A stretch of DNA of 64,000 bases from a phage: the sequence record PQ338057.1, one strand, 5' to 3'. The position numbers were made by a program, and so were the translations under genes. A model generated the notes under the pieces. That model worked only from the letters and a program-made list of their open reading frames with translations. It did not search any database and was not told the origin of the DNA. Positions 3,639 to 62,004 of the stretch are shown in pieces. Position 1 is the stretch's first letter. Each line of letters opens with the position of its first letter.

Positions 3639-5585
3639 TTACTCTCGTGCCAGAGCATCTACTGGATCCAGTCGTGCCGCATTTCGTGCGGGTAACCAGC
3701 CAAATAAAATCCCGGTGACCGTCGAGCAGAGAAACGCCAGCAGCAGCGCCAACGGTGAAAAACCAATCTCCCAGCCGGGTAAGAAAAGCTGCAAGGTGAA
3801 AGCAATTAACAGTGACAGTGTTATTCCCAACGCGCCACCGACCAGGCAAACCAGTACGGCTTCGATCAGGAACTGTTGCAAAACATCGCTTGCTCGCGCA
3901 CCTACAGCCATGCGAATGCCAATTTCCCGCGTCCGCTCGGTCACTGACACCAGCATAATATTCATTACACCAATACCGCCCACCACCAGCGAAATCACCG
4001 CCACCAGCGTCAGAAACAGTTGTAAAGTACGTGTGGTCTTTTCAACAGTTTTCAAGACGCCGTCCATGTTCCAGGTAAAGAAATCCTTCTTTCCGTGGCG
4101 CAGTGAAAGTAAACGCGTGAGTTGCTGTTCCGCCTCGGCGCTGTCAAATCCTTCTTTCACCCTGACAGTAATGGAGTTAAGCCACGACTGGCCCATAACT
4201 CGCCCGGACATCGTGCTGTAAGGTAGCCAGACACGCAGCACTTTACTGCTACCAAACATCGACTGTTTTTCTTCCGCCACACCAATGACTCTGGCGGGCA
4301 TATTGCCGACCAGAATCACCTCGCCAACCACATCTGCTTTATGGGGGAAAAGCTGGCGGCGAGTATTACTGTCGAGAACCACGACCTGCGCACGACCGTT
4401 CAGCTGCTCCTGATTAAAGGTGTTCCCTTCACTGAAGGTCATGCCATAGACATTAAAATAATCGCCGCTCACGCCATTGGCACTGGCAGCAACATCAACA
4501 TTGTTATAACGCAGGCGCAGGTTTTGCGAGACGGCAGGTGTGGCTGAGGCGACCCACGGTTGTTTTTGGATGGCGATTAAGTCGTCGTACTTCAGCGCCT
4601 GTTGATATTGCGGATCGTCATCGCCAAAATCTTTCCCGGGATAGACATCAATAGTATTCGTACCAATAGAACGAATATCCGCCAGCACCATTTGTTTGGC
4701 GGCGTCACCCACCACGACAATGGAAACCACCGACGCAATACCGATAATAATCCCCAGCATGGTCAGTAAAGTACGCATTTTATTCGCTGCCAGCGCCCGC
4801 CATGCCATCGTCAGCGCCTCGTTAAAACCGCTGACAAACTGCCGCCAGCCAGACACCGTGTTGACAACAGGCTCCGTCCCGCCAGCAACATTCACTTTTT
4901 CAATGGCGGGAGGATTGCGCACAATTTCGCCGTCGCGAATTTCGATCACCCGCTCGGCCTGAGCAGCGACCTGCGGATCGTGGGTGACGATAATCACCGT
5001 ATGCCCGCGATCGCGCAGCTGATGCAGGATCGCCATCACCTCTTCGCCAGAATGGCTGTCCAGTGCGCCGGTTGGTTCATCGGCAAGAATTACCTGACCG
5101 CCGTTCATCAATGCCCGCGCGATGCTGACGCGCTGTTGCTGACCACCCGAAAGCTGTGCCGGATAATACTCTGTACGGTCTTCCAGCCCCAGCCGTTGCA
5201 GCAACTCCTGGGCGCGAAGCAGCCGCTGTTTCCGCTCAAGACCAGCATAGACGGCGGGAACTTCAACGTTCTGCTCGGCGGTTAAATGCGAAAGCAAATG
5301 GTAACGCTGGAAAATAAAGCCGAAATGCTCGCGGCGCAGTTGCGCCAGCGCATCGGCGTCCAGCGTGGCAACATCCTGACCGGCGACGCGATAGGTGCCG
5401 CTGGTGGCCTTATCCAGACAGCCGAGAATATTCATCAGGGTCGATTTACCGGAACCCGAAGCGCCAACAATCGCCACCATCTCACCAGCATAAATATCGA
5501 GGGTGATGCCCTTCAGCACCTCAACCTGCTCATCACCGGCAGGATAGCTGCGACGAATATCCTTTAATTCGAGCAAAGGCGTCAT
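3639..5585 (-). CDS. macB: Macrolide export ABC transporter ATPase/permease MacB
   Basis: 648 aa; N-terminal ABC domain ([17 protein letters not shown]) plus C-terminal permease. Confidence 0.95.
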
Positions 5586-6697
5586 TGTGCAGCTCCTGGT
5601 TTGGCCTCACCAATCACCACTTCATCGCCCGCTTCAAGCCCTTTGACAATCTCAACATCGGTATCGTTACGTGCGCCAATCGTCACTTCACGCTCGCGTG
5701 TTTCACCATTACGCAACAATTTGACTTTATAACGATTATCGCCAACCGGATCGCCTAACGCCGACAGAGGGATCGTCAGCACATTTTTCACATCGGTGAG
5801 CTGAATATGCACTTGCGCAGTCATATCCAGCCGCAGCAAACCATTGGGGTTGGGGACTTCAAAACGGGCGTAATAGAAAATAGCGTCGTTAACCTTTTCC
5901 GGCGTCGGTAGTACATCCTTGATTTGCCCCTCGTAGCGCGTCAGTGGATCGCCAAGCACCGTAAACCAGGCTTTTTGCCCCGGCTTCAGGTGGATTACAT
6001 CCGCTTCAGAAACCTGCGCTTTTACCAGCATGGTGCTCATATCTGCCAGCGTCAGAATGTTCGGTGCTTGTTGTGCGGCAATCACCGTCTGGCCTTGCAG
6101 AGTGGTGATTTGCGTGACTTCCCCGGCCATCGGGGCAACGATGCGAGTGTAATCGAGATTGGTTTTAGCCGTATCGAGAGAAGCCTGATTGCGCTTGATT
6201 TGCGCGTCAATGGTGCCAATTTGCGCCTGTTTCACAGCCATCTCCGTCGCGGCGGTGTCGAGATCCTGCTGTGAAACAGCCTTCGTTTGTGCCAGACGTT
6301 GCTGACGGGAATACGTCACCCGCGCCAGTTTCAGCTCCGCTTCCGCCTGCTGCCGCTGCGCGCGTAGCTCCATCAGCGTTGCTTCGACCTCCTTGATCTG
6401 GTTTTCAGCCTGTTCAGGATCAATGACCCCTAAAAGCTGGTCTTTTTTTACTTTATCGCCAATCGCCACCGACAGCGTTTTCAACTGACCGCTGACCTGC
6501 GCGCCCACGTCAACCTTACGCAGCGCGTCCAGCTTTCCGGTCGCCAGCACGCTTTGCTGTAAATCACCGGGGCGCACAATCAGTGTCTGATAAGTCGGCA
6601 CGGGTGCGTTAAGAATTCTCCATAACGTAATCAGTCCGGCGATGACTATCACCAGCGCAATAACGTAACGCTTCTTCACGGTTTTCCGCTTTTTCAT
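5582..6697 (-). CDS. macA: Macrolide efflux periplasmic adaptor MacA
   Basis: 371 aa from MKKRKTVKK; 4-bp overlap with macB. Confidence 0.92.
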
Positions 6698-19177: not shown

Positions 19178-20191
19178 ATGAAGGTACTGGTTACCGGCGC
19201 CACCAGCGGCTTAGGTCGAAACGCGGTAGAGTTTTTATGCCAGAAAGGCATCAGCGTGCGAGCGACCGGTCGCAACGAGGCAATGGGCAAATTGCTGGAA
19301 AAAATGGGCGCAGAGTTTGTTCCGGCGGATCTGACCGAGCTGGTTTCATCACAAGCTAAAGTGATGCTCGCGGGCATTGATACGCTGTGGCACTGCTCCA
19401 GCTTTACCTCACCCTGGGGGACACAACAGGCTTTCGATCTGGCTAACGTTCGCGCCACTCGCCGCCTGGGTGAATGGGCTGTCGCCTGGGGTGTGCGTAA
19501 CTTTATTCATATCTCTTCCCCCTCCCTGTACTTCGATTATCACCACCATCGCGATATTAAAGAAGATTTTCGCCCTCACCGCTTCGCCAACGAGTTTGCC
19601 CGCAGCAAAGCAGCCAGCGAAGAAGTGATCAATATGCTTTCGCAGGCGAATCCACAAACGCGCTTTACTATTCTGCGCCCACAAAGTCTGTTCGGACCGC
19701 ACGATAAAGTCTTTATTCCCCGTCTGGCGCATATGATGCACCACTACGGCAGTATTCTGTTACCGCATGGCGGCAGTGCGCTGGTCGATATGACCTACTA
19801 TGAAAATGCCGTGCACGCAATGTGGCTGGCAAGCCAGGAAGCCTGCGATAAGCTACCTTCCGGGCGTGTGTACAACATCACCAACGGCGAGCATCGCACA
19901 CTGCGCAGCATCGTGCAGAAGCTGATCGACGAGTTGAATATTGACTGTCGTATTCGTTCCGTCCCCTACCCGATGCTGGATATGATCGCCCGCAGCATGG
20001 AGCGTTTAGGCCGCAAGTCAGCAAAAGAGCCGCCGCTGACCCACTACGGCGTCTCCAAGTTGAATTTTGACTTTACGCTGGATATTACGCGTGCGCAGGA
20101 AGAGTTAGGTTATCAGCCGGTCATCACCCTGGATGAAGGTATCGAGAAAACTGCCGCCTGGCTACGCGACCACGGAAAACTGCCGCGCTAA
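19178..20191 (+). CDS. ybjS: NAD-dependent epimerase/dehydratase-family protein YbjS
   Basis: 337 aa from [13 protein letters not shown]. Confidence 0.85.
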
Positions 20192-21018
20192 TCCTGCCCG
20201 TATTTCTCCAGCAATGCTTCGGCAATCGCCTGAGTTTCTGCATCCGCTTCGCCGTTATATAACGTCGGGCGGAAATGCATCTGGAATGCCATAATCACGC
20301 GCCGCTGCTCGCGCGGTATCATATCAGGTTTAACGTCATAACCGTAGCGCGCCAAAAGCTCCAGCAATGACGTAGTATCTACAGGAGTGTGCGGCGCGCG
20401 CCCGGCAAGGTAAAAGTTAACCCGCTGCGCATCCGGCCAGGCACCAATCCCCTGCTGCGCCAGTTGCTGCCAGGGAAATAATGGCCCCGGATCGTCTTTG
20501 CGCTGCGGTGCGATATCCGCATGTGCCACTACGTTTTCCGGCTTGATGTGATAACGGGCAATAATATCTTTCGCCAGTGGAATAAGCGCCTGAATCTGTG
20601 CCGGTTCAAACGGGGCAAAATATTTCACTCCGGCCGATTTTTGCCAGCCACGGTTTTCCAGCTCAATGCCAATAGAGGTGTCGTTAAGGCGCGTTGCCCC
20701 GCGCCAGGCGCTAATCCCCGCATGCCAGGCCAGTTCTTGTTCCGGCACCAGTTGCCAGATGCGCGGTTTACCGTTGTATCGCGGTGGTACCGCAGGGACC
20801 AGATAATGCGAGCTGACCTGCTTATCGGTCAGTGTCGCCAGCGAGCTATCAAAATCATCTGCGGTGTAGTGGATCACCAGCACTTTAATGCGCGGATACG
20901 CCGCCTGCGCCTGGCGTCGGGTATCAAGCTGATATCCCTCTTTCTCGACAATGCCTTTTTCGCCTGCACACCCTGCCAATAACAGAGCGGCAGCGACCAG
21001 CCAGAAGACTCTTCTCAT
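20188..21018 (-). CDS. amiD: N-acetylmuramoyl-L-alanine amidase lipoprotein AmiD
   Basis: 276 aa; lipobox LLLAGCAG. Confidence 0.9.
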
Positions 21019-38009: not shown

Positions 38010-38032
38010 ATGGCGACAAAATGGCGGCAGCG
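38010..38032. repeat. Prophage att core repeat (ogr-proximal end)
   Basis: atggcgacaaaatggcggcagcg; 22/23 identical to 61982-62004; abuts ogr stop codon. Confidence 0.6.
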
Positions 38033-38341: not shown

Positions 38342-38710
38342 TCATTCCATTTCGAAATCATCAATCTTCACTTCAAGCTCCAGACTGGTCGTAAAACCGT
38401 TATCCGGGCTGACAGTATGCGTCAGGGTGGTAATAGTCCATTCCGCATCATCTATCGGCTGTTTAAAGCCACTGACTTTCACTGGCATTTCCGTGTAGAG
38501 ATCTGCCCGCCCTTCCGCCAGTTGTAGCGAGAATGACGCAACGCCGCGTTGCAGGCGTTCCCACTGCATTTTCGCCGCTCGTTCGGCGTTGCTCCGGTTG
38601 GCATAAGTGCGATTAAGTACCAGCACGTTTTCATCCGTACCCACCAGGTAATCGCCCTGCTTCGCTTCCGGCTCTTTCTTCTGCTTCTTAGTTCTGCGCT
38701 TACGCTTCAC
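38342..38710 (-). pseudogene. C-terminal remnant of P2 gpD-like late tail protein
   Basis: 122-aa ORF immediately upstream of ogr as in P2 (U-D-ogr); far shorter than gpD (~390 aa); fused to the invertase remnant. Confidence 0.55.
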
Positions 38711-38988
38711 CGTGGTGCTTTCTTTCTTCGCAGGTTCGCGGGTAACTCTTCTATCAGCGTAACAAGATGCCGCATACTGCGCCCCAACCTGTCCAGCTTC
38801 CAGACAACCAGCGTGTCTCCTGCCGATAGTGTCCTGAGCAGTTTTTTCAGCCCCGGTCTGTCGGACTTAGTGCCGCTGATTTTATCCTCAAAAATCCGCT
38901 CACATCCCGCGCAGTTCAGCGCACTACGTTGCAAATCGGTGTTCTGGTCATTTGTTGACACGCGTACATAGCCAATAAGCATGATCAT
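38707..38988 (-). pseudogene. Truncated Gin/Pin/Hin-family serine DNA invertase (N-terminal ~80 aa only)
   Basis: MLIGYVRVSTNDQNTDLQ...DTLVVWKLDRLGRS matches the invertase catalytic domain; C-terminal HTH domain absent. Confidence 0.75.
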
Positions 38989-39009
38989 CTCCTTGAATAA
39001 AAATCGGGG

Positions 39010-39552
39010 ATGATGCCAGTTAGTCGTAATCGCTGCATTTTCTTAAACGTTGGTTTGGGAGAAGACTCTGCATTACCTGTTGGGGTGCCTGTTCCGTGGC
39101 CTTCAGCCACTCCGCCTACAGGCTGGCTGAAATGCAATGGTGCAGCTTTTTCTGCTGAAGAATACCCGGAACTGGCAAAGGCTTATCCGACAAATAAATT
39201 GCCTGATTTACGTGGTGAGTTTATTCGTGGCTGGGATGATGGGCGTGGTATTGATGCTGGACGTGCCTTGCTAAGTCTTCAGAATGGAGGAGTGGAATCA
39301 CACACCCACCAGGGACAGCTCTTCAGAGTCAGTGATTATCGTACAAAAGAAATACCAGCATCAGAAGTTATGGGAAGAGGATATATTGCAAGCCTGACGC
39401 CGGGTGCTGATAGCCCACTTGATTTTGATGATTATTCTGTATCCTCTAATCCAAATGGATATTTTGTCGGGAATCAGAGAACAACAGCATATGGGGTAAA
39501 TGAAACCCGCCCACGGAATATTGCATTTAACTATATCGTGAGGGCTGCATAA
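39010..39552 (+). CDS. Alternative tail-fibre C-terminal cassette (promoterless) in invertible segment
   Basis: Opposite orientation to H; shares the GLG junction with H at the crossover repeat; followed by its own tfa gene. Confidence 0.7.
   Translation: MMPVSRNRCIFLNVGLGEDSALPVGVPVPWPSATPPTGWLKCNGAAFSAEEYPELAKAYPTNKLPDLRGEFIRGWDDGRGIDAGRALLSLQNGGVESHTHQGQLFRVSDYRTKEIPASEVMGRGYIASLTPGADSPLDFDDYSVSSNPNGYFVGNQRTTAYGVNETRPRNIAFNYIVRAA
39041..39064. repeat. gix/hix-like invertase crossover site (invertase-proximal)
   Basis: ttcttaaacgttggtttgggagaa; 13-bp core ttggtttgggaga is a perfect inverted copy of 41127-41139. Confidence 0.55.
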
Positions 39553-40154
39553 TGGATAACGCTGTATTAAATAGCGAGCTTATTGCCACGAAGGCGGGAA
39601 ATATTCCTGTCTATAACTATGATGGTGAAACACGGGAATATATTTCCACTTCAAATGAATATCTTTCCGTTGGTGTCGGCATTCCGGCATGTTCCTGTTT
39701 AGATGCCCCTGGCACACATAAGGCTGATTATGCAATCTGCCGTTCTACAGATTTTAACTCATGGGAATATGTGCCAGATCATCGCGGTGAAATCGTCTAT
39801 AACACCGAAACGGGAGATGCCAAAGAAATCACAGCTCCGGGTGATTACCCTGAAAATACAACCACTATCGCACCGTTAACGCCATACGATAAATGGGATG
39901 GTGAGAAATGGGTGACAGATACTGAGGCACAACACGGTGCCGCAGTAGAAGTGGCAGAAGCACAACGCCAGTCACTGATTGATGCAGCAATGGCTTCCAT
40001 TAGTCTGATTCAGCTGAAATTGCAGGCCGGGCGGAAGCTGATGCAGGCAGAAACCACCCGACTTAACATTGTGCTGGATTACATTGACGCGGTGACGGCA
40101 ACAGATACCAGCACCGCGCCGGATGTCATCTGGCCTGAACTGCCGGAGGCGTAG
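39552..40154 (+). CDS. Tail-fibre assembly chaperone (alternative Tfa)
   Basis: 200 aa; convergent with the prophage G-like tfa; typical Mu-G-segment-like layout. Confidence 0.75.
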   Translation: MDNAVLNSELIATKAGNIPVYNYDGETREYISTSNEYLSVGVGIPACSCLDAPGTHKADYAICRSTDFNSWEYVPDHRGEIVYNTETGDAKEITAPGDYPENTTTIAPLTPYDKWDGEKWVTDTEAQHGAAVEVAEAQRQSLIDAAMASISLIQLKLQAGRKLMQAETTRLNIVLDYIDAVTATDTSTAPDVIWPELPEA

Positions 40155-40563
40155 GCCATTCAATATCTGGCACACTGGAGGTATCAACCAGCTCCAGTGC
40201 GTCCAGATAATCCAGCCACGAATTATATTGCGCCAGTTCCTCGCCTTTCAGACGACCAATAGCGGCTTTACCGGGCCATTGTTTACTGTTCATGTATTCG
40301 TTGGCCTGATTAATTAATAGCTGTCTTTTTGACTCAGAAATTTCAATAAGTTCTTCATGCGTGGGTGAAGGAATATCTGCCCACGCAGGCATTCCGTCTG
40401 CACCTGCAATACGTCGCTTACCCTGCGGAGGTGTCGCCATAAACGACTCGGCACGTCGGGTTTCAATATCTTTTGCATCATCAGGCCATGTGCCGGAATC
40501 GCGGTATACGGCCTCATTACCAGCCAGATAAAACGCATTTTTTTTAGCACTGTATTTGTACAT
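40126..40563 (-). CDS. Tail-fibre assembly protein (P2 gpG-like)
   Basis: 145 aa directly downstream of H. Confidence 0.8.
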   Translation of the reverse strand: MYKYSAKKNAFYLAGNEAVYRDSGTWPDDAKDIETRRAESFMATPPQGKRRIAGADGMPAWADIPSPTHEELIEISESKRQLLINQANEYMNSKQWPGKAAIGRLKGEELAQYNSWLDYLDALELVDTSSVPDIEWPTPPAVQAR

Positions 40564-44036: not shown

Positions 44037-44611
44037 ACCGGGCCTCCGGTTGTATCGCCGCCTTTCAGGACGCCAGTATGCTGATGCGCATCAACCACGA
44101 TCCCGTTAGAACTCATCGCTCCGCCGCCCTGGGTAACGCCACCATTGATCACCACTTCGCTGTTAATGCGCGTGCGGTCAGCCTCCAGTACAAACTCACT
44201 GGTTTTCATGGTGATGTTATCAGCGGCCTCAATGACCATTGATTTGATGCCCCTGACATACCAGCGCCCGGTGGCGGGTTCGTATTCAAACCAGCCACCG
44301 TCAGGATGTTCTGTCACGCAGGCGTCCGCCGACGTCGACGGTGGTGCGAACTGATTCGAATAGACAGCGGGCAGCGCAAAGGCAGTCTCCAGATTGCCGC
44401 CCAGACTCAGCAGCACCACCTGCTCACCTTCCGATGGTCGCCACCATGTGCGGGCATTACCCGCGCGCAGCGTCAGCCAGCTGATCCAGTTGGTTTCAAG
44501 GTCGCCCGTTTTCACCCGACAAAGCCAGTTTTCCCGGTCCACTTCGGTGACTACACCTATGCGGATCAGATTGGTGATAAGGCGCATGATTTCGGTTAGT
44601 TGTGCGTTCAT
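44033..44611 (-). CDS. Baseplate spike/hub protein V (P2 gpV-like)
   Basis: 192 aa from MNAQLTEIMRLI; ORF-track start is upstream in AT-rich DNA. Confidence 0.8.
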   Translation of the reverse strand: MNAQLTEIMRLITNLIRIGVVTEVDRENWLCRVKTGDLETNWISWLTLRAGNARTWWRPSEGEQVVLLSLGGNLETAFALPAVYSNQFAPPSTSADACVTEHPDGGWFEYEPATGRWYVRGIKSMVIEAADNITMKTSEFVLEADRTRINSEVVINGGVTQGGGAMSSNGIVVDAHQHTGVLKGGDTTGGPV

Positions 44612-44657
44612 AGATATATGATGACAGCTGAAAACTTGTTTATAACTTCTTGCAAAT

Positions 44658-44675
44658 TGTGGTATCGATGGTACA
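44658..44675 (-). promoter_or_regulatory. Putative Ogr-dependent late promoter element upstream of V
   Basis: TGT-N12-ACA dyad (tgtggtatcgatggtaca) about 50 bp upstream of the V start. Confidence 0.4.
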
Positions 44676-44714
44676 AATTGATAAAAGGATAAAAAACAAC
44701 CAATAGGTGGATAA

Positions 44715-45521
44715 ATGAGTGTTATGAATCCAATAAGTTCTAATATATTTAATGCTGAATTTTTAAACACCCCGGCAGCGGCACTTGCCGCATGGATTTC
44801 CATTATTGGAGCTGTTATAACTTTGGTGACGATAGTTATAAGAGCACTATTCAAATATAGAAAATCTCATGATGTAATTTTGAAAAAATCAGGAATACCT
44901 GCGTTTATATTAAATTTTTTTCTTATACGAATATCATTAAAAAGGCTGCCTACTATCACATGGGCTGAAAAATCAATCACGGTTCTCTTTTCACTTCTTT
45001 TTTTGTGTGCAATTTATATTTTTGGTCCAGTTTTCATCCAAGCCATTAGAACCCCACCAAATAGCACATTGCTTTATTGGATAAAGTCCGGTGAATCATT
45101 TTATATGTCAAAAAAACTGGCGACTGCAGCTACAATATTAACCACTCCTGATTGGGAAATATCAAAAGATGATTGCGAAGAGTCATCCTCTGCCAGTACA
45201 GAGAAGTACAAATCATTAACTATCGAACATAAAGAAATTCTTTGTAAACTACTAACCACTGATGAAGGGAATACTTACATTGATGAAGAAGTCAAGAATT
45301 TCGTTAAAGACAAATTCTTTATCTATTCCTTTGCCCCAACAACCATATTTATTCTATTATGGATTTCTTTGGGTTTTATACTGACCATTCACTATTCTAA
45401 AAAAGTTAGGAAATATATTCTGACTGAACAAAAAAATGCAATTCATTGGGCATATGGTGAATTCAAGACAGAAGGAATCTATTCAATATATCACGAGTTA
45501 GAACGTAAGACTCACCATTAA
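44715..45521 (+). CDS. AT-rich cargo gene encoding a polytopic membrane protein
   Basis: 268 aa with several hydrophobic helices; SD aggtgg; anti-oriented between S and V where P2 has no gene. Confidence 0.6.
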   Translation: MSVMNPISSNIFNAEFLNTPAAALAAWISIIGAVITLVTIVIRALFKYRKSHDVILKKSGIPAFILNFFLIRISLKRLPTITWAEKSITVLFSLLFLCAIYIFGPVFIQAIRTPPNSTLLYWIKSGESFYMSKKLATAATILTTPDWEISKDDCEESSSASTEKYKSLTIEHKEILCKLLTTDEGNTYIDEEVKNFVKDKFFIYSFAPTTIFILLWISLGFILTIHYSKKVRKYILTEQKNAIHWAYGEFKTEGIYSIYHELERKTHH

Positions 45522-45909
45522 GACCCAACAAACGACGCTCTGCGTAACGCACTTCCGGTCCTTTGCGGCTGACGCGATCGCGCAGGCCATAATGGTGAAC
45601 GCGGGCAATGCGCTGCACCTTACTTTCAAACTGTACGCTGGCAGAGTCGGCGCTGGCGGCGGTTTTCAGGTATTTGGTGGTGCGCAGCTTTGCAAACATC
45701 TGACGTTTGATGCGGCCTTTTTTACTGCGCGCCGTGACCTTGCGCGGTTCATAACTGCTGCCATCTGGATTGCGCTGCATCCTGATATTCTGCTGCTGTG
45801 TCCGGCGCAGTTCCTGCGCCAGCTGGCGCATCATGCGGCTTCTTGCGACTGGTTCCAGATTCGCCAGTAAGGCACTAAGCCAGTCGTCCACCTTCTGCAG
45901 TTCAGCCAC
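45463..45909 (-). CDS. Tail completion/virion morphogenesis protein (P2 gpS-like)
   Basis: 148 aa, position between R and V. Confidence 0.55.
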   Translation of the reverse strand: MAELQKVDDWLSALLANLEPVARSRMMRQLAQELRRTQQQNIRMQRNPDGSSYEPRKVTARSKKGRIKRQMFAKLRTTKYLKTAASADSASVQFESKVQRIARVHHYGLRDRVSRKGPEVRYAERRLLGLNGESYVLTRDILNRFLLS

Positions 45910-46586: not shown

Positions 46587-46857
46587 GTTTCAGTTCCTCG
46601 ATCCGGTGTTGTCGTTGTCTCAGCAGTGCACTGGTCTGTTCTGCTTCGGCATAGAGCCGCGCCTGCTCCCGGTTATTGGTTTCAGTCAGAATGGACAGGC
46701 TGATAAGCTGGCTGTTTTTCTTCGTCAGTTCCTGCGCTTTACTTTTCAGCGCCGCGCGCTGCGTTTCGATGGTGTGGCTGGCGCTGTTAAGCCGCCACGA
46801 CTGCCAGCCCAGCGCAACGAGTGCCAGCGCCACCACTACTGCCAGCGCACGCGTCAT
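46429..46857 (-). CDS. i-spanin (LysB/Rz-like)
   Basis: 142 aa; N-terminal TM then coiled-coil-rich periplasmic region. Confidence 0.65.
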   Translation of the reverse strand: MTRALAVVVALALVALGWQSWRLNSASHTIETQRAALKSKAQELTKKNSQLISLSILTETNNREQARLYAEAEQTSALLRQRQHRIEELKRENEDLRRWADTPLPADIIRLRERPALTGGTAYRQWLSASDAVSAGSGNAAH

Positions 46858-46993
46858 AGTCCAGCTCCTTTAAGGCACCAGGCCATCTCCCGCGCACGGC
46901 GGTTATCCAGCCCCTGATTAAACACACCTTTTACATAAACCCAGCGCGGCAACTGTCGGCACGCATCTGCCCAGCGCCGCTGATTGAGCAATT

Positions 46994-47746
46994 TCACCAG
47001 TGTGGAACTACAGGCATTGCCCGTTGCTGCTTCTGCAGAGCAGACTCCAGTTCAGACAGGCGTTCTTCCTGCTCAGACAGAGATTTTTCGGTTCGCGCGC
47101 TCAGGTTTTGCTGCTCAGTGGCGACCAGCTCCACGGCCTTATGCACATCAGAGAACCGGGCGTCATCGGACTGCTCTTTTTTGGTGAACAGCGCCGTGAC
47201 GCGGGAAAACAGGGACGGTTTGTCGTCCTGGACTTCCTCCAGTTCGATCACCGTTTCCTCTGCAGCGGTAAAGAGATTGGCAGGATTCTGCTTGCGGTTT
47301 GCCAGCGGGTTATGGGCTGCACTGGCGCTGAATGTCAGCATTTCAGTGCCCAGACTGGCAGGGTCATCAGTGGCAGCCAGGCCGACCAGGTAGGCTTTGC
47401 CCGTATCAGCGAACTTCGGGCTGACTTCCATAGAGGTGAATAATTTCTGGCCTTTTTTCACCAGTTCCACCAGGGACTCCGTTGGCTCAACGTCGGCATA
47501 CAGCGCCATCTTGCCTGCCAGCGGACCTTCCGTGATTTCCTCAGCAAACAGCGCCGTCACCTTGCCGTAGCGGTTAAAGGTGCTGTCCGGCAGATAAGAC
47601 TTGATGTGCTCAAGGTTAATCAGCGCGGTATACACCGCCGGGTTGTAGCTGGCTGCCATCTGTTCCAGCCATTCACGCTGGATTTCGCGTCCGTCGGTGG
47701 TGGCACCTTCCACCCCGATGCGAAAACGCTTTGCTTTCACTGTCAT
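46994..47746 (-). pseudogene. Capsid scaffold protein (P2 gpO-like), C-terminally truncated
   Basis: 250 aa, resembles P2 gpO; divergent from P; the downstream N-M-L-X-Y-K-lysA block is missing. Confidence 0.7.
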
Positions 47747-47824: not shown

Positions 47825-47842
47825 TGTACCGACAACCACACA
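47825..47842 (+). promoter_or_regulatory. Putative Ogr-box in the divergent P/O late promoter region
   Basis: tgt-accgacaaccac-aca (TGT-N12-ACA) about 50 bp upstream of the P start. Confidence 0.4.
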
Positions 47843-47888
47843 AACCGCAGGCGGGGAAAGCCTTCATTCAAGGCTGTAGGTTTGTGCC

Positions 47889-49655
47889 ATGAACACCACA
47901 CTGACACCCGCAGATCTCGATCCCCGTCGGCAGGCCATGCTGCTGTACTTTCAGGGATACCGCGTAGCCCGCATTGCTGAAATGCTGGGCGAGAAAGTTG
48001 CAACCGTTCACAGCTGGAAAAAACGCGACAAGTGGGGTGACTATGGGCCGCTGGATCAGATGCAGCTCACCACCGCCGCACGCTACTGCCAGCTCATTAT
48101 GAAGGAGCACAAAGAAGGGAAAGATTTCAAAGAGATTGACCTGCTGGCGCGCCAGTCGGAGCGCCATGCGCGGATCGGCAAGTTTAACAATGGCGGCAAC
48201 GAAGCCGACTTAAACCCTAACGTCGCCAACCGCAACAAAGGCCCGCGTCGTCAGCCGGAAAAGAACGTTTTCACCGATGAACAGATTGAGAAGCTGGAAG
48301 AAATCTTCCATTCCTCCATGTTCAACTACCAGCGCCACTGGTGGGAAGCCGGAAAAACCAACCGCATCCGCAACCTGCTGAAGTCACGCCAGATCGGCGC
48401 GACCTTCTATTTTGCCCGTGAAGCCCTGATTGACGCCCTGCTAACCGGGCGTAACCAGATTTTCCTTTCCGCCAGCAAGGCACAGGCCCACGTCTTTAAG
48501 CAGTACATCATCGACTTCGCCAAAGAAGTGGAGGTGGAGCTGAAAGGCGATCCGATAGTGCTTCCTAACGGGGCCACGCTGTACTTCCTCGGCACCAATG
48601 CCCGCACGGCCCAGAGTTACCACGGCAACCTGTATCTGGATGAATATTTCTGGATACCGAAATTCCAAGAGCTGCGCAAAGTGGCTTCCGGTATGGCTAT
48701 TCACAAAAAATGGCGACAAACCTATTTTTCCACGCCATCCAGCCTGACACACAGTGCTTATCCGTTCTGGTCCGGTGCGCTGTTCAACCGTGGGCGCAAC
48801 AAAGCCGACAAGGTGGACATCGACCTGTCCCACAGCAATCTGGCCCCCGGCCTGCTGTGCACAGACGGGCAATACCGCCAGATAGTCACCGTGGAAGATG
48901 CGGTGCGCGGCGGCTGTAACCTGTTCGACCTCGACCAGCTACGCATGGAGTACAGCCCGGACGAATACCAGAACCTGCTGATGTGCGAGTTCGTGGACGA
49001 TCTCGCGTCCGTGTTCCCGCTCAGCGAGCTGCAAGCGTGCATGGTGGACAGTTGGGAAATCTGGACCGACTTTCATGCACTGGCCCTGCGCCCGTTTGGC
49101 TGGCGCGAAGTGTGGATCGGTTATGACCCGGCAAAAGGTACGCAGAACGGCGACAGTGCCGGATGCGTGGTGGTGGCACCGCCAGCCGTGCCGGGTGGTA
49201 AGTTCCGCATTCTTGAGCGTCACCAGTGGCGCGGGATGGACTTCCGCGCCCAGGCTGACGCCATCAAAAAACTGACCGAGCAGTACAACGTGACCTACAT
49301 CGGCATCGACTCGACAGGTGTCGGCCACGGGGTTTACGAGAACGTGAAAGCGTTTTTTCCAGCCGTCCGGGAGTTTGTCTACAACCCCAACGTTAAAAAC
49401 GCCCTGGTACTCAAGGCCTACGACATTATCAGTCACCGTCGTCTGGAGTTTGACGCCGGACACACCGACATAGCGCAGTCATTTATGGCAATCCGTCGCG
49501 CCACCACCGCCAGCGGCAACCGCCCAACCTATGAAGCCAGCCGCAGCGAAGAAGCCAGCCATGCCGATCTGGCCTGGGCAACAATGCACGCACTGTTTAA
49601 CGAACCGCTGCAGGGCGAGTCCGCCAATACCAGCAATATTGTGGAGATTTTTTGA
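47889..49655 (+). CDS. Terminase large (ATPase) subunit, P2 gpP-like
   Basis: 588 aa. Confidence 0.9.
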   Translation: MNTTLTPADLDPRRQAMLLYFQGYRVARIAEMLGEKVATVHSWKKRDKWGDYGPLDQMQLTTAARYCQLIMKEHKEGKDFKEIDLLARQSERHARIGKFNNGGNEADLNPNVANRNKGPRRQPEKNVFTDEQIEKLEEIFHSSMFNYQRHWWEAGKTNRIRNLLKSRQIGATFYFAREALIDALLTGRNQIFLSASKAQAHVFKQYIIDFAKEVEVELKGDPIVLPNGATLYFLGTNARTAQSYHGNLYLDEYFWIPKFQELRKVASGMAIHKKWRQTYFSTPSSLTHSAYPFWSGALFNRGRNKADKVDIDLSHSNLAPGLLCTDGQYRQIVTVEDAVRGGCNLFDLDQLRMEYSPDEYQNLLMCEFVDDLASVFPLSELQACMVDSWEIWTDFHALALRPFGWREVWIGYDPAKGTQNGDSAGCVVVAPPAVPGGKFRILERHQWRGMDFRAQADAIKKLTEQYNVTYIGIDSTGVGHGVYENVKAFFPAVREFVYNPNVKNALVLKAYDIISHRRLEFDAGHTDIAQSFMAIRRATTASGNRPTYEASRSEEASHADLAWATMHALFNEPLQGESANTSNIVEIF

Positions 49656-50688: not shown

Positions 50689-50716
50689 CGAAGACCATTA
50701 GGTCTTCGCTTTATTT
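50689..50716. terminator. Hairpin between convergent portal and retron RT genes
   Basis: cgaagacc-atta-ggtcttcg followed by ctttattt. Confidence 0.45.
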
Positions 50717-51660
50717 AAAGGGTTCTTTCCATATTTTTTTTCTAATTTGCTAATATAAGTTATTAATCTCCTATGGCTTTTTGAATCCACACTTAAAATA
50801 AATGACAACCATCCCCTAACGTGTTCTATCTCAGAAGACTTACCGCAAAATATATGATGTATCTTTGCTCTAATTTCTTTATATTTTTCTCTACCTATCC
50901 CAACTTTCTCTTGTGAAATAACTAAACCTGTAACTTTCCTCTGACTACGAGGCCCACTAATACAAGTTTTTTTTGAGTTAATAACCAATCCTTCACTTGG
51001 GATTATAGAAAATAAAAAATCACGTGCTTTAACAACCTTTTTCATAGACTGTGCAGATAAGGTGAGATCATCGGCATATCTCGTATATATCAAGCCCCGA
51101 CTACCTGCATAACCCTGAATACGATAATCAAGTTTAGAACATATTAGATTAGCTAATTTAGGTGATGATGGAGCACCTTGTGGTAGCAGATTTTTATAAC
51201 AACATATTTTTGTCAAAACTGAAGATATTAGTCGATTATAACCAAGAGAATGGAACACTCCAAAAACTTTGTTAGCAGTTAAACTTGGGAAAAAATCCTC
51301 CAAATCAATATTCAGTATAAAGTTTGCCCCAATATGCGGGGTAGCATTATTCAAAATAGATTGGTGCTTTTCAAATCCAATAGAAAAAGGAGATGACGAC
51401 AGTTTATCTAAAATGTTACGTAGAACCCATCCTTGTAAGGCTTTAAGTTCTCGAGAAGGTTGGTAAATGGTTCTCATTCTCTTCTCTGGGCCTTTCTTTT
51501 CTACAGTGTAGATCCTATAGCGAAAATCAGCTGTATAGATTAACAACCGAAGTGTTTCAACAGATATGCGAGTCGCCTTAGACATGTCATGCAAATTGTT
51601 CATGACAGGTAGGCCGAGATTTCTCAATCTAAAAGTGTTCAAATATTCAGCGGATTTCAT
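50698..51660 (-). CDS. ret: Retron-type reverse transcriptase
   Basis: 320 aa; motifs NATPH (NAxxH), YADD, VTG; AT-rich; ncRNA immediately upstream; from memory matches the Ec86/Eco1 RT. Confidence 0.95.
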   Translation of the reverse strand: MKSAEYLNTFRLRNLGLPVMNNLHDMSKATRISVETLRLLIYTADFRYRIYTVEKKGPEKRMRTIYQPSRELKALQGWVLRNILDKLSSSPFSIGFEKHQSILNNATPHIGANFILNIDLEDFFPSLTANKVFGVFHSLGYNRLISSVLTKICCYKNLLPQGAPSSPKLANLICSKLDYRIQGYAGSRGLIYTRYADDLTLSAQSMKKVVKARDFLFSIIPSEGLVINSKKTCISGPRSQRKVTGLVISQEKVGIGREKYKEIRAKIHHIFCGKSSEIEHVRGWLSFILSVDSKSHRRLITYISKLEKKYGKNPLNKAKT

Positions 51661-51666
51661 GAAAGT

Positions 51667-51836
51667 TGCGCACCCTTACGTCAGAAAAAACGGGTTTCCT
51701 GGTTGGCTCGGAGAGCATCAGGCGATGCTCTCCGTTCCAACAAGGAAAACAGACAGTAACTCAGATTCAATGCAGGATGCCGAAACAACATCCAGAGGTT
51801 GACCTTAATGATAAACCTCTCGCTAAGGGTGCGCAT
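51667..51836 (-). ncRNA. msr-msd: Retron msr-msd non-coding RNA
   Basis: 12-nt terminal inverted repeats tgcgcaccctta (51667-51678) and taagggtgcgca (51824-51835); long internal hairpin; ends 7 nt before the RT start. Confidence 0.85.
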
Positions 51837-52746
51837 ACGGAATCTTATCATAGTTAAATGTTGATTTTCTACGGTTTTCAAAATTCATAATCTCAAGCCG
51901 CAATCGGTCAAGTGTCTTTCTATCAAAGACGCTCCTAACATAGCTAGCCCCCAAAGCAGTGACCTGATAACCATCAGTCATTTGAAGTATTTTTCGTTCA
52001 TTTATTAGACGAGAAACAACGGATCTAACAATAATTTTAGATAAAACATCATCTTGCTTTATCGCTTTAAAAGCTAGTTCACACAGTGTGCGGTAGTTGA
52101 CACTATCCAGTAAATAGATACAAGGCAATAGAAACCGCTCTGCGTATAATATATTTCCAATATCTTTTGATACTTTATTTTCTTTCCTAACCTTCTTAAT
52201 AGATGCCATTAATTTTTTATATAATCGTAATTTTCTGGCAACATCAATAGATGAATCACACATTTCTTTTAGTTCATTTGAACTACAACGCAAAACAGAT
52301 TTTGAATTAAACTTACGCAACAGGCGAACAGGACCATAGTTAATAAAGCTACGTTTTGATTTAAATTTTGCATCTTGAATGCAAATCAACTTTCTCCTTA
52401 AGTTTTCATTATTAGAGAACGCACCAAGCTCTGTGAAAGACCCCGGACTTTCAGGAAATAAAATTATTACATCGACAGCTTCAGCCAGAATATTTTCTAA
52501 ACTTAAAAGGCTATGCTGCCCTTGACCAGCCAAAAGATCATCAAATAGATCTTCTGGATAAAATATATCAACATCACTGAACTTTGCTAAAAATTGTGAT
52601 AATTGATGACGCCAAGATTGATGATTAGCAACGTCACCACCACATAGAAAAATGGTTATTTTAATATTAGCTCCTCGATAGAAGCCTTTCTTTGTGAGAT
52701 GTCCTATAAGCTGTTGTTGCTGCTCATCGGTAAATTTTTTATTCAT
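51823..52746 (-). CDS. Retron effector (predicted nucleoside-deoxyribosyltransferase-like N-glycosidase with C-terminal DNA-binding region)
   Basis: 307 aa, AT-rich; first gene of the retron operon with its 3' end overlapping the msr start; Rossmann-like N-terminus KITIFLCGG. Confidence 0.75.
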   Translation of the reverse strand: MNKKFTDEQQQQLIGHLTKKGFYRGANIKITIFLCGGDVANHQSWRHQLSQFLAKFSDVDIFYPEDLFDDLLAGQGQHSLLSLENILAEAVDVIILFPESPGSFTELGAFSNNENLRRKLICIQDAKFKSKRSFINYGPVRLLRKFNSKSVLRCSSNELKEMCDSSIDVARKLRLYKKLMASIKKVRKENKVSKDIGNILYAERFLLPCIYLLDSVNYRTLCELAFKAIKQDDVLSKIIVRSVVSRLINERKILQMTDGYQVTALGASYVRSVFDRKTLDRLRLEIMNFENRRKSTFNYDKIPYAHP

Positions 52747-61981: not shown

Positions 61982-62004
61982 ATGGCGACAAAGTGGCGGC
62001 AGCG
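61982..62004. repeat. Prophage att core repeat (int-proximal end)
   Basis: atggcgacaaagtggcggcagcg; 22/23 identical to 38010-38032. Confidence 0.6.

Follow-up and report, generated by a model that had tools for sequence, protein, structure and literature searches.

A DUF6216 membrane-protein gene in the orf30 slot of the P2-like prophage of E. coli B: slot fidelity, retention in decayed prophages and a possible role in superinfection exclusion

The window, i.e. the whole stretch of 64,000 nucleotides from sequence record PQ338057.1 that was analysed, holds the defective P2-like prophage of E. coli B (REL606/BL21), and between the tail genes V and S of this prophage lies a real, horizontally acquired, AT-rich gene for a membrane protein of the DUF6216 family. 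DUF6216 proteins down to ~20% identity are tied to the V/S slot of P2-like prophages, an association that is new here, and their gene outlives decayed prophages under purifying selection, so that it probably benefits the cell. Based on these findings we propose that the protein would serve the cell rather than the virion, most likely by blocking the entry of DNA from superinfecting phages at the level of the envelope. The account as a whole combines a module in the orf30 slot, a promoter of its own, occlusion of this promoter by Ogr, a protein with three transmembrane (TM) helices and superinfection exclusion, and in this complete form we hold it tentatively, somewhat short of an even chance.

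The slot and its immediate surroundings are composed as follows (positions in the window):

44612-45521, no strand assigned: AT-rich cargo module in the S/V ('orf30') slot, delimited by low GC and by similarity breakpoints vs phage KP12
44033-44611, minus strand: baseplate spike gene V, 192 aa (Pfam Phage_base_V and Apex; RefSeq CDS of 579 bp)
44658-44675, minus strand: Ogr/Delta-type activator box TGT-N12-ACA of the late promoter pV, exact match TGTGGTATCGATGGTACA
44650-44677, plus strand: putative sigma-70 promoter of the DUF6216 gene, with bases invariant in 8 loci
44650-44655, plus strand: its -35 element TTGCAA, followed by a 16-nt spacer to the extended -10 element
44669-44677, plus strand: its extended -10 element TGgTACAAA, with a predicted start near 44684
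44705-44710, plus strand: Shine-Dalgarno-like AGGTGG, 4 nt before the ATG (GGAGG at this position in most homologues)
44715-45521, plus strand: DUF6216 family gene, 268 aa, WP_000115390.1, predicted inner-membrane protein
45463-45909, minus strand: tail completion gene S (Pfam Phage_tail_S, 2e-38)

The product of the reading frame at 44715-45521 is labelled "DUF6216 family protein" in RefSeq, and at the base composition of this frame the chance of 268 stop-free codons is ~1.3e-9. GC content is 0.31-0.36 across 44650-45549 vs 0.53-0.59 on both flanks, the gene itself having 33%. An initial annotation, made from the sequence of the window, had described a polytopic membrane protein of 268 aa that is encoded in strongly AT-rich DNA, runs opposite to the flanking tail genes and overlaps the 3' end of S by about 59 bp. 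This description is borne out: the frame is on the plus strand and V and S are both on the minus strand, the convergent overlap spans 45463-45521, i.e. 59 bp, and three hydrophobic segments in the hydropathy profile back the membrane assignment. Positions 44560-45560 are 100% identical to genomes of the E. coli B lineage and of related laboratory strains (REL606, BL21(DE3), C41, C43 and others), and at least 80% of this region is present in 111 of 5426 complete E. coli genomes (~2%). A longer V frame of 273 aa, starting from a TTG at 44854, was rejected as a mechanical over-extension on the basis of the 579-bp RefSeq CDS and the alignment of V starts, and a non-coding RNA in the 44612-45521 module was dismissed, as there were zero Rfam matches.

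In REL606 a defective P2-like prophage is annotated between ybjL and rcdA. Its genes are arranged in the order ogr, gpD fragment, truncated invertase, tail-fibre cassettes, H, I, J, W and V, then the DUF6216 gene, S, R, lysC/lysB, lysozyme fragment and truncated O, and finally P, Q, the retron, the replication genes, CI and int. At 46854-47746 a 3' fragment of the lysozyme gene (K), whose RefSeq CDS is partial, abuts the scaffold gene O, which is truncated to 250 aa. The prophage has lost L, X, the holin gene, most of K and, for capsid and terminase, N and M. A second deletion or rearrangement is located at 38342-40563, where a C-terminal gpD fragment (38342-38743) is joined to a truncated recombinase/invertase (38743-38982); next to the latter lie oppositely oriented tail-fibre and tail-fibre-assembly cassettes that resemble an invertible host-range segment minus its invertase. 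The prophage also lacks the genes for sheath and tube as well as E, T and U. The old/tin hotspot, which extends from the portal gene Q to the replication gene A, is occupied at 50698-52746 by a retron composed of an St85-family reverse transcriptase and an effector, which we take to be the retron of E. coli B. Both prophage ends carry an imperfect 23-bp direct repeat (38010-38032 and 61982-62004; 22/23 identical; ATGGCGACAAA[A/G]TGGCGGCAGCG) that is probably the attachment core, and the same sequence also adjoins ybjL in two orphan loci (L016 and L018).

The slot is occupied in P2 as well. NC_001895 annotates Orf30 there (NP_046770), a nonessential gene of 261 aa and 34% GC in antisense orientation between S and V, and the statement of the initial annotation that P2 has no gene between S and V is therefore false. 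Neither is an insertion 'inside the late operon', as the position had been characterised, anything unusual, for this is a known variable slot between the O and V operons. According to the literature, the three sites at which P2-like phages harbour horizontally acquired genes are Z/fun, tin-old and the orf30 position (PMC3091744). The nearest sequenced phages are P2-like phages of Klebsiella and Escherichia, which are ~95% identical in V, S and R and in which the insert is absent. The slot is empty in KP12, where only 68 bp separate S from V, and in Cartapus it holds an unrelated ORF for a soluble protein of 176 aa. From the empty slot of KP12 and the annotation 'nonessential' in P2 we infer that the DUF6216 gene is dispensable for phage growth.

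In the alignment with KP12 similarity breaks at the ATG of V, the activator box excepted, and returns at ~45521, i.e. at the stop codon of the ORF. The module thus delimited comprises a pV region of its own, the DUF6216 gene and the final ~18-19 codons of S. Flanking direct or inverted repeats were not found around 44612-45521; a transposon-like insertion was dismissed for this reason, and the exchange looks like recombination rather than transposition. The module may have been gained as a self-contained unit through recombination inside the two flanking genes, at the 5' edge of V and at the 3' end of S. S codons ~130-148 (45463-45520) belong to the AT-rich module, where the same DNA also encodes the C-terminal tail of the DUF6216 protein, and in this overlap of 19 codons the synonymous divergence of the DUF6216 gene is 0.39 vs ~0.65 elsewhere. 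The C-termini of S vary with the type of cargo, those of the window, KP12, Cartapus and P2 all being different. As the ~18 C-terminal residues change with the cargo, every exchange of cargo gives an essential tail gene a new end. The three closest sequences share a loose xxTRDxxxxxL pattern in the S C-terminus.

The location between a tail completion and a baseplate gene and close to R and the lysis genes, the overlap with S and the supply of the last ~18 residues of S by the module are what might suggest an accessory of the phage cycle that modulates lysis timing or the assembly of tail or baseplate. We consider such a role extremely improbable, however, as the gene runs opposite to both late operons, the occupant of this slot in P2, Orf30, is annotated as nonessential, close relatives do without any gene in the slot, and orphan copies persist where the phage genes are gone.

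The module comprises two sets of promoter elements. The initial annotation had assigned a putative Ogr box at 44658-44675 to V, and TGTGGTATCGATGGTACA is found exactly there, its centre being 55.5 bp upstream of the V ATG. In the P2 annotation the start of pV transcription coincides with the first nucleotide of the V start codon, and the centre of the activator site is at about -55, so that the geometry in the window is the same as in P2 pV. A TTGT...ACAA box is present at the equivalent position in KP12 and Cartapus. The bare TGT-N12-ACA motif is not enriched in the window (11 matches vs 15 ± 4 expected), and 3 of the 11 matches, those at 44658, 47825 and 47883, are at expected positions of late promoters. 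The latter two boxes (47825-47842 and 47883-47900) lie in the divergent O-P intergenic region, at positions that fit pP and pO.

The putative promoter of the DUF6216 gene is arranged back-to-back with pV, and the Ogr box overlaps its spacer and its -10 element. TCTTG.AA and TGGTACAA.TT are invariant in eight aligned loci, including three orphan loci without V, and in all three of these the TGT half-site of the Ogr box reads TAT. A consensus promoter scanner made no call for the proposed promoter, position 6 of its -10 hexamer not being T. Judged by this pattern of conservation the DUF6216 gene appears to have its own sigma-70-type promoter, from which it would be transcribed in the lysogen and which would be occluded once Ogr and RNA polymerase occupy the overlapping pV during late lytic growth. 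AT-rich DNA is usually silenced by H-NS in E. coli, and expression of the gene in the lysogen may therefore be low.

The protein matches Pfam DUF6216 (PF19723) with 44.5 bits (E 1.5e-11), i.e. above the gathering threshold of 27.3, and every homologue found has a precomputed PF19723 match. It represents a divergent subfamily, as its residues 72-237 align only to profile positions 114-265 of 270 and as it has a C-terminal extension of ~22 aa, encoded in the overlap with S, that most of the members of ~235-246 aa lack. The family traits, i.e. a length of ~235-296 aa and a pair of cysteines in the loop that precedes the last TM helix, are found in the window protein. Its three hydrophobic segments (hydropathy window centres 25-39, 93-104 and 210-220) correspond to TM helices predicted at about 22-45, 86-109 and 200-226. 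Along the four non-membrane regions the number of Lys and Arg residues is 0, 8, 11 (with 16 acidic residues) and 8, i.e. basic residues are concentrated in loop 46-85 and the C-terminal tail and are missing from the N-terminus, and in loop 110-199 acidic residues outnumber them. According to the positive-inside rule this charge distribution puts the N-terminus outside, loop 46-85 in the cytoplasm, loop 110-199 in the periplasm and the C-terminus inside. Topology prediction, to which the initial annotation had pointed, thus gives an inner-membrane protein with three TM helices in N-out/C-in orientation and a periplasmic domain at 110-199.

In a family alignment of 53 sequences, whose identity to the window protein is 14-93%, invariance is restricted to C154 and C177, and P114, F129, A136 and W147 are conserved to at least 90%. 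All these residues belong to the periplasmic domain or border on it, as would suit a disulphide, and this domain of ~90 aa is probably disulphide-held. AlphaFold2, run with the 53-sequence alignment, yields a model (pLDDT 84.8, pTM 0.70) with three long helices, a four-stranded sheet (118-150) and short helices. In this arrangement the conserved N-terminal peptide and the ~90-aa domain would face the periplasm, and the conserved basic loop and the C-terminal helix would face the cytoplasm. A structure search among solved (PDB) and viral (BFVD) structures returned nothing that resembles the model, a profile sequence search of the PDB gave zero matches, and PHROGs and NCBIfam yielded nothing meaningful. 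Likewise, zero families of the PADLOC-DB v2 defence-protein HMMs matched at E <= 1. Holin profiles gave matches below threshold, i.e. Phage holins PF16080 with 14.5 bits vs a cut-off of 28.8 (E 0.037), covering one TM helix (TM1), and phrog_4237 with E 0.26.

Some single-gene membrane proteins of the abortive-infection type depolarise or lyse the cell on sensing infection. An abortive-infection or membrane-permeabilising effector of this kind, which would sense infection and then depolarise or lyse the cell, is compatible with a prophage accessory gene, given that the AT-rich morons old, tin and Z/fun of P2 are described as exclusion genes, and with a membrane protein whose TM1 is weakly, though sub-threshold, holin-like (PF16080, E 0.037; phrog_4237, E 0.26). 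Nevertheless, we regard it as distinctly unlikely: the holin-like matches involve a single TM helix and remain below threshold, PADLOC is negative, the unit retained in orphan loci comprises no partner, sensor or antitoxin gene, and a constitutively promoted toxic protein would hardly be the sole survivor of a prophage.

The family is small and comprises 32 clusters at ≥50% identity plus one truncated match, all named ones being from Enterobacterales. A profile search retrieved 50 representatives (of 50%-identity clusters) among 1.84 billion, and tblastn against 50,697 phage records gave zero relatives. A 93%-identical allele is present in a complete-looking P2-like prophage of E. coli (L026, GCA_017758465.1), a 47%-identical copy occupies the V/S slot of a Buttiauxella prophage, where S is overlapped, and a copy of ~20% identity (P0061) is also found between V and S with an S overlap. 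The complete-looking prophages have the 104-bp spacing from V and the S overlap that are seen in the window, and the antisense low-GC arrangement between S and the pV activator site recurs in L019, L024 and L026. It is only from such intact-looking prophages that we infer carriage by viable phages. In L026 the Z/fun slot is occupied by an Acyl_transf_3 gene and the old/tin slot by a KAP NTPase gene (4672-5739 and 19436-20807); together with the 93% DUF6216 allele all three of its cargo slots are therefore filled.

At other loci the gene is found among the remains of a prophage. In C. youngae the DUF6216 ORF is intact beside a V stub of 33 aa and frameshifted S and R genes, in S. rubidaea and K. 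aerogenes it is kept with prophage remnants at a second site, dnaG-rpoD-mug, in C. sedlakii and in an Enterobacteriaceae MAG it is the sole gene left between ybjL and rcdA or ybjJ, and in Scandinavium it is kept with a CI gene and few other genes. The copies of C. sedlakii, the MAG and Scandinavium are oriented as in E. coli B and adjoin the attachment core. The ybjL-rcdA site also harbours homologues of 32-35% identity, one of which directly adjoins an integrase fragment. In coordinates equivalent to those of the window, the retained segments start at 44639, 44642, 44560 or 44523 (~75 bp of upstream DNA being kept) and end at 45511, 45522, 45552 or 45762, i.e. the retained unit is essentially promoter plus ORF, with junctions that differ between loci. 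The ybjL-rcdA copies could partly share one ancient integration, which makes the number of independent retention events uncertain. The reverse route, i.e. capture of a resident chromosomal ybjL-rcdA gene by a phage, is less likely than decay, as the slot is mid-genome; it is further weakened by the V, S, R and integrase stubs that flank several copies and by the presence of highly divergent members in the slot of intact prophages.

Some of these loci hold additional genes. The Scandinavium sp. locus at ybjL-rcdA (L018, the same as L008; 6836-11800) contains, besides the DUF6216 gene, genes for a GIY-YIG protein and a CI-type repressor, a 662-aa ATPase (AAA_15/AAA_21, OLD/ABC-like) and an integrase stub, and this decayed prophage may be a small domesticated defence islet. 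On an enterobacterial metagenome contig, again at ybjL-rcdA (L021/L022, 3885-5891), two unannotated genes of 130 and 289 aa and an integrase fragment of 34 aa lie directly upstream of a 32%-identical DUF6216 gene.

Pairwise dN/dS values of DUF6216 genes are 0.12-0.33, orphan-orphan pairs included, and dS reaches values above 1. Constraint is strongest in the N-terminal peptide, the cytoplasmic loop and the C-terminal tail, and the TM helices and the periplasmic domain evolve faster. Moreover, none of the examined loci has a disrupted DUF6216 ORF, while the adjacent V, S and R genes have suffered truncations or frameshifts. The strongly AT-rich composition, the consensus promoter scan without a call and the absence of a recognisable function would also be expected of neutral, H-NS-silenced passenger DNA with a functionless ORF that is intact by chance. 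This is very unlikely in view of dN/dS ratios of 0.12-0.33 over dS values up to >1, of ORFs that are intact at every examined locus beside truncated or frameshifted V, S and R, and of the conservation of promoter-like elements, of the Cys pair and of aromatic residues. The survival of orphan copies under purifying selection and with a conserved putative promoter speaks against two of the rival readings, the phage-cycle accessory and neutral junk.

A benefit for the host, as suggested by intact orphans and purifying selection, fits a defence role such as the superinfection exclusion or abortive infection raised in the initial annotation, without proving one, and orphan survival with purifying selection cannot separate phage exclusion from other cell benefits. 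The gene might thus be a host fitness factor unrelated to phages, e.g. one involved in envelope homeostasis, in immunity to a bacteriocin or a contact-dependent toxin, or in a colonisation trait (lysogenic conversion). The benefit implied by orphan retention and purifying selection is of unspecified kind, the polytopic inner-membrane layout with a small periplasmic domain also fits immunity proteins, and an O-antigen-type acyltransferase in a cargo slot of a sister prophage indicates that conversion genes are carried, too. We nevertheless judge this reading somewhat unlikely, since a cognate toxin or partner gene never travels along, since the family, with 50 clusters at 50% identity in a set of 1.84 billion representatives, is very small, and since all examined contexts trace to the P2-like prophage slot or to the attachment site of such phages.

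We favour superinfection exclusion at the level of the envelope because the gene is a single, self-promoted prophage moron, because its product is predicted to be an inner-membrane protein with a periplasm-facing, faster-evolving domain, because the retained unit has no partner gene, and because the other characterised AT-rich morons of P2, i.e. old, tin and Z/fun, are described as phage-exclusion genes (PMC9122126; 10.1101/2024.10.15.618418). On these grounds exclusion is a possible function of the DUF6216 protein, one that we put forward with reserve. The broader idea that DUF6216, possibly together with the remote P2 Orf30, constitutes a new, S/V-slot-specific family of single-gene exclusion systems that acts at the envelope, is Ogr-occluded and has repeatedly been kept as the last prophage gene at ybjL-rcdA in Citrobacter, Scandinavium and other Enterobacterales would, at present, have to be called doubtful.

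Several elements of this picture are already known: the gene is annotated (DUF6216), the orf30 slot has been described, and the strain is among the best studied. New here are the slot fidelity of DUF6216, the orphan retention at ybjL-rcdA, the sigma-70-like orphan promoter without the TGT half-site and the predicted architecture of the protein, together with the negative searches among structures, defence systems and phage families. To our knowledge, P2 orf30 has been without an assigned function since the annotation of the P2 genome, and the DUF6216 family has none either. A preprint of September 2026 on H-NS silencing of antiviral immunity (10.64898/2026.09.05.749240) may already cover the DUF6216 gene; it mentions 'BL21' 29 times and 'P2-like prophage' 4 times, and the words 'transmembrane' and 'DUF6216' each occur once. 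Recent surveys of defence hotspots in P2-like phages, as far as their text is searchable, centre on the old/tin and Z/fun loci, and the orf30 or S/V slot is absent from these searchable parts.

The analysis connects a gene of E. coli B with a small family whose members keep to the orf30 slot and stay under purifying selection after prophage decay. As the module of ~0.9 kb is already resident in BL21 and REL606, any effect on phages could be tested cheaply and concretely. If the module excludes phages, the third cargo slot of P2 would join the defence repertoire, there would be one more reason for the differing phage sensitivity of B strains, and the gene would be a clear case of a host-domesticated prophage gene. 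If the module does nothing, it would be an ordinary annotated DUF gene. The interest of the gene comes mainly from the pattern of orphan retention and from the ease of the test.

P2 orf30 is one of the known systems that come closest. Both genes occupy the slot from S to the pV activator site on the antisense strand and are alike in size (261 vs 268 aa) and GC content (34% vs 33%), and both proteins share a predicted layout of TM1, cytoplasmic loop, TM2, a loop of ~90 aa with two cysteines, TM3 and a basic tail. BLASTP of the DUF6216 protein vs P2 Orf30 gives E 0.043, and hhalign gives a probability of 12.5% with the single sequence and of 44.7% (E 2e-4) with the family profile, the latter over 68 columns only, with the cysteines in register. 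P2 Orf30 has only five close relatives and zero Pfam matches, DUF6216 included. Given these alignments, DUF6216 proteins and P2 Orf30 are possibly remote relatives. The two loci differ at the end of S, as P2 has a terminator after S and S is not overlapped, whereas in the window the overlap is 59 bp and the sequence scanner predicted no terminator between S and V.

P22 SieA, T4 Imm and HK97 gp15, which we take to be superinfection-exclusion membrane proteins, have zero sequence or structure similarity to the DUF6216 protein in the libraries searched. The likeness lies in the general design: a prophage moron, transcribed from its own (here putative) promoter, codes for one small inner-membrane protein, part of which faces the periplasm and could meet components of the incoming phage. 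Finally, the old/tin (between A and Q) and Z/fun (after G) loci are likewise AT-rich and horizontally exchanged at fixed positions, and acquired genes are listed for the orf30 site along with them (PMC3091744, PMC13586616), but whereas these two hold multi-gene systems, the S/V slot holds one small gene.
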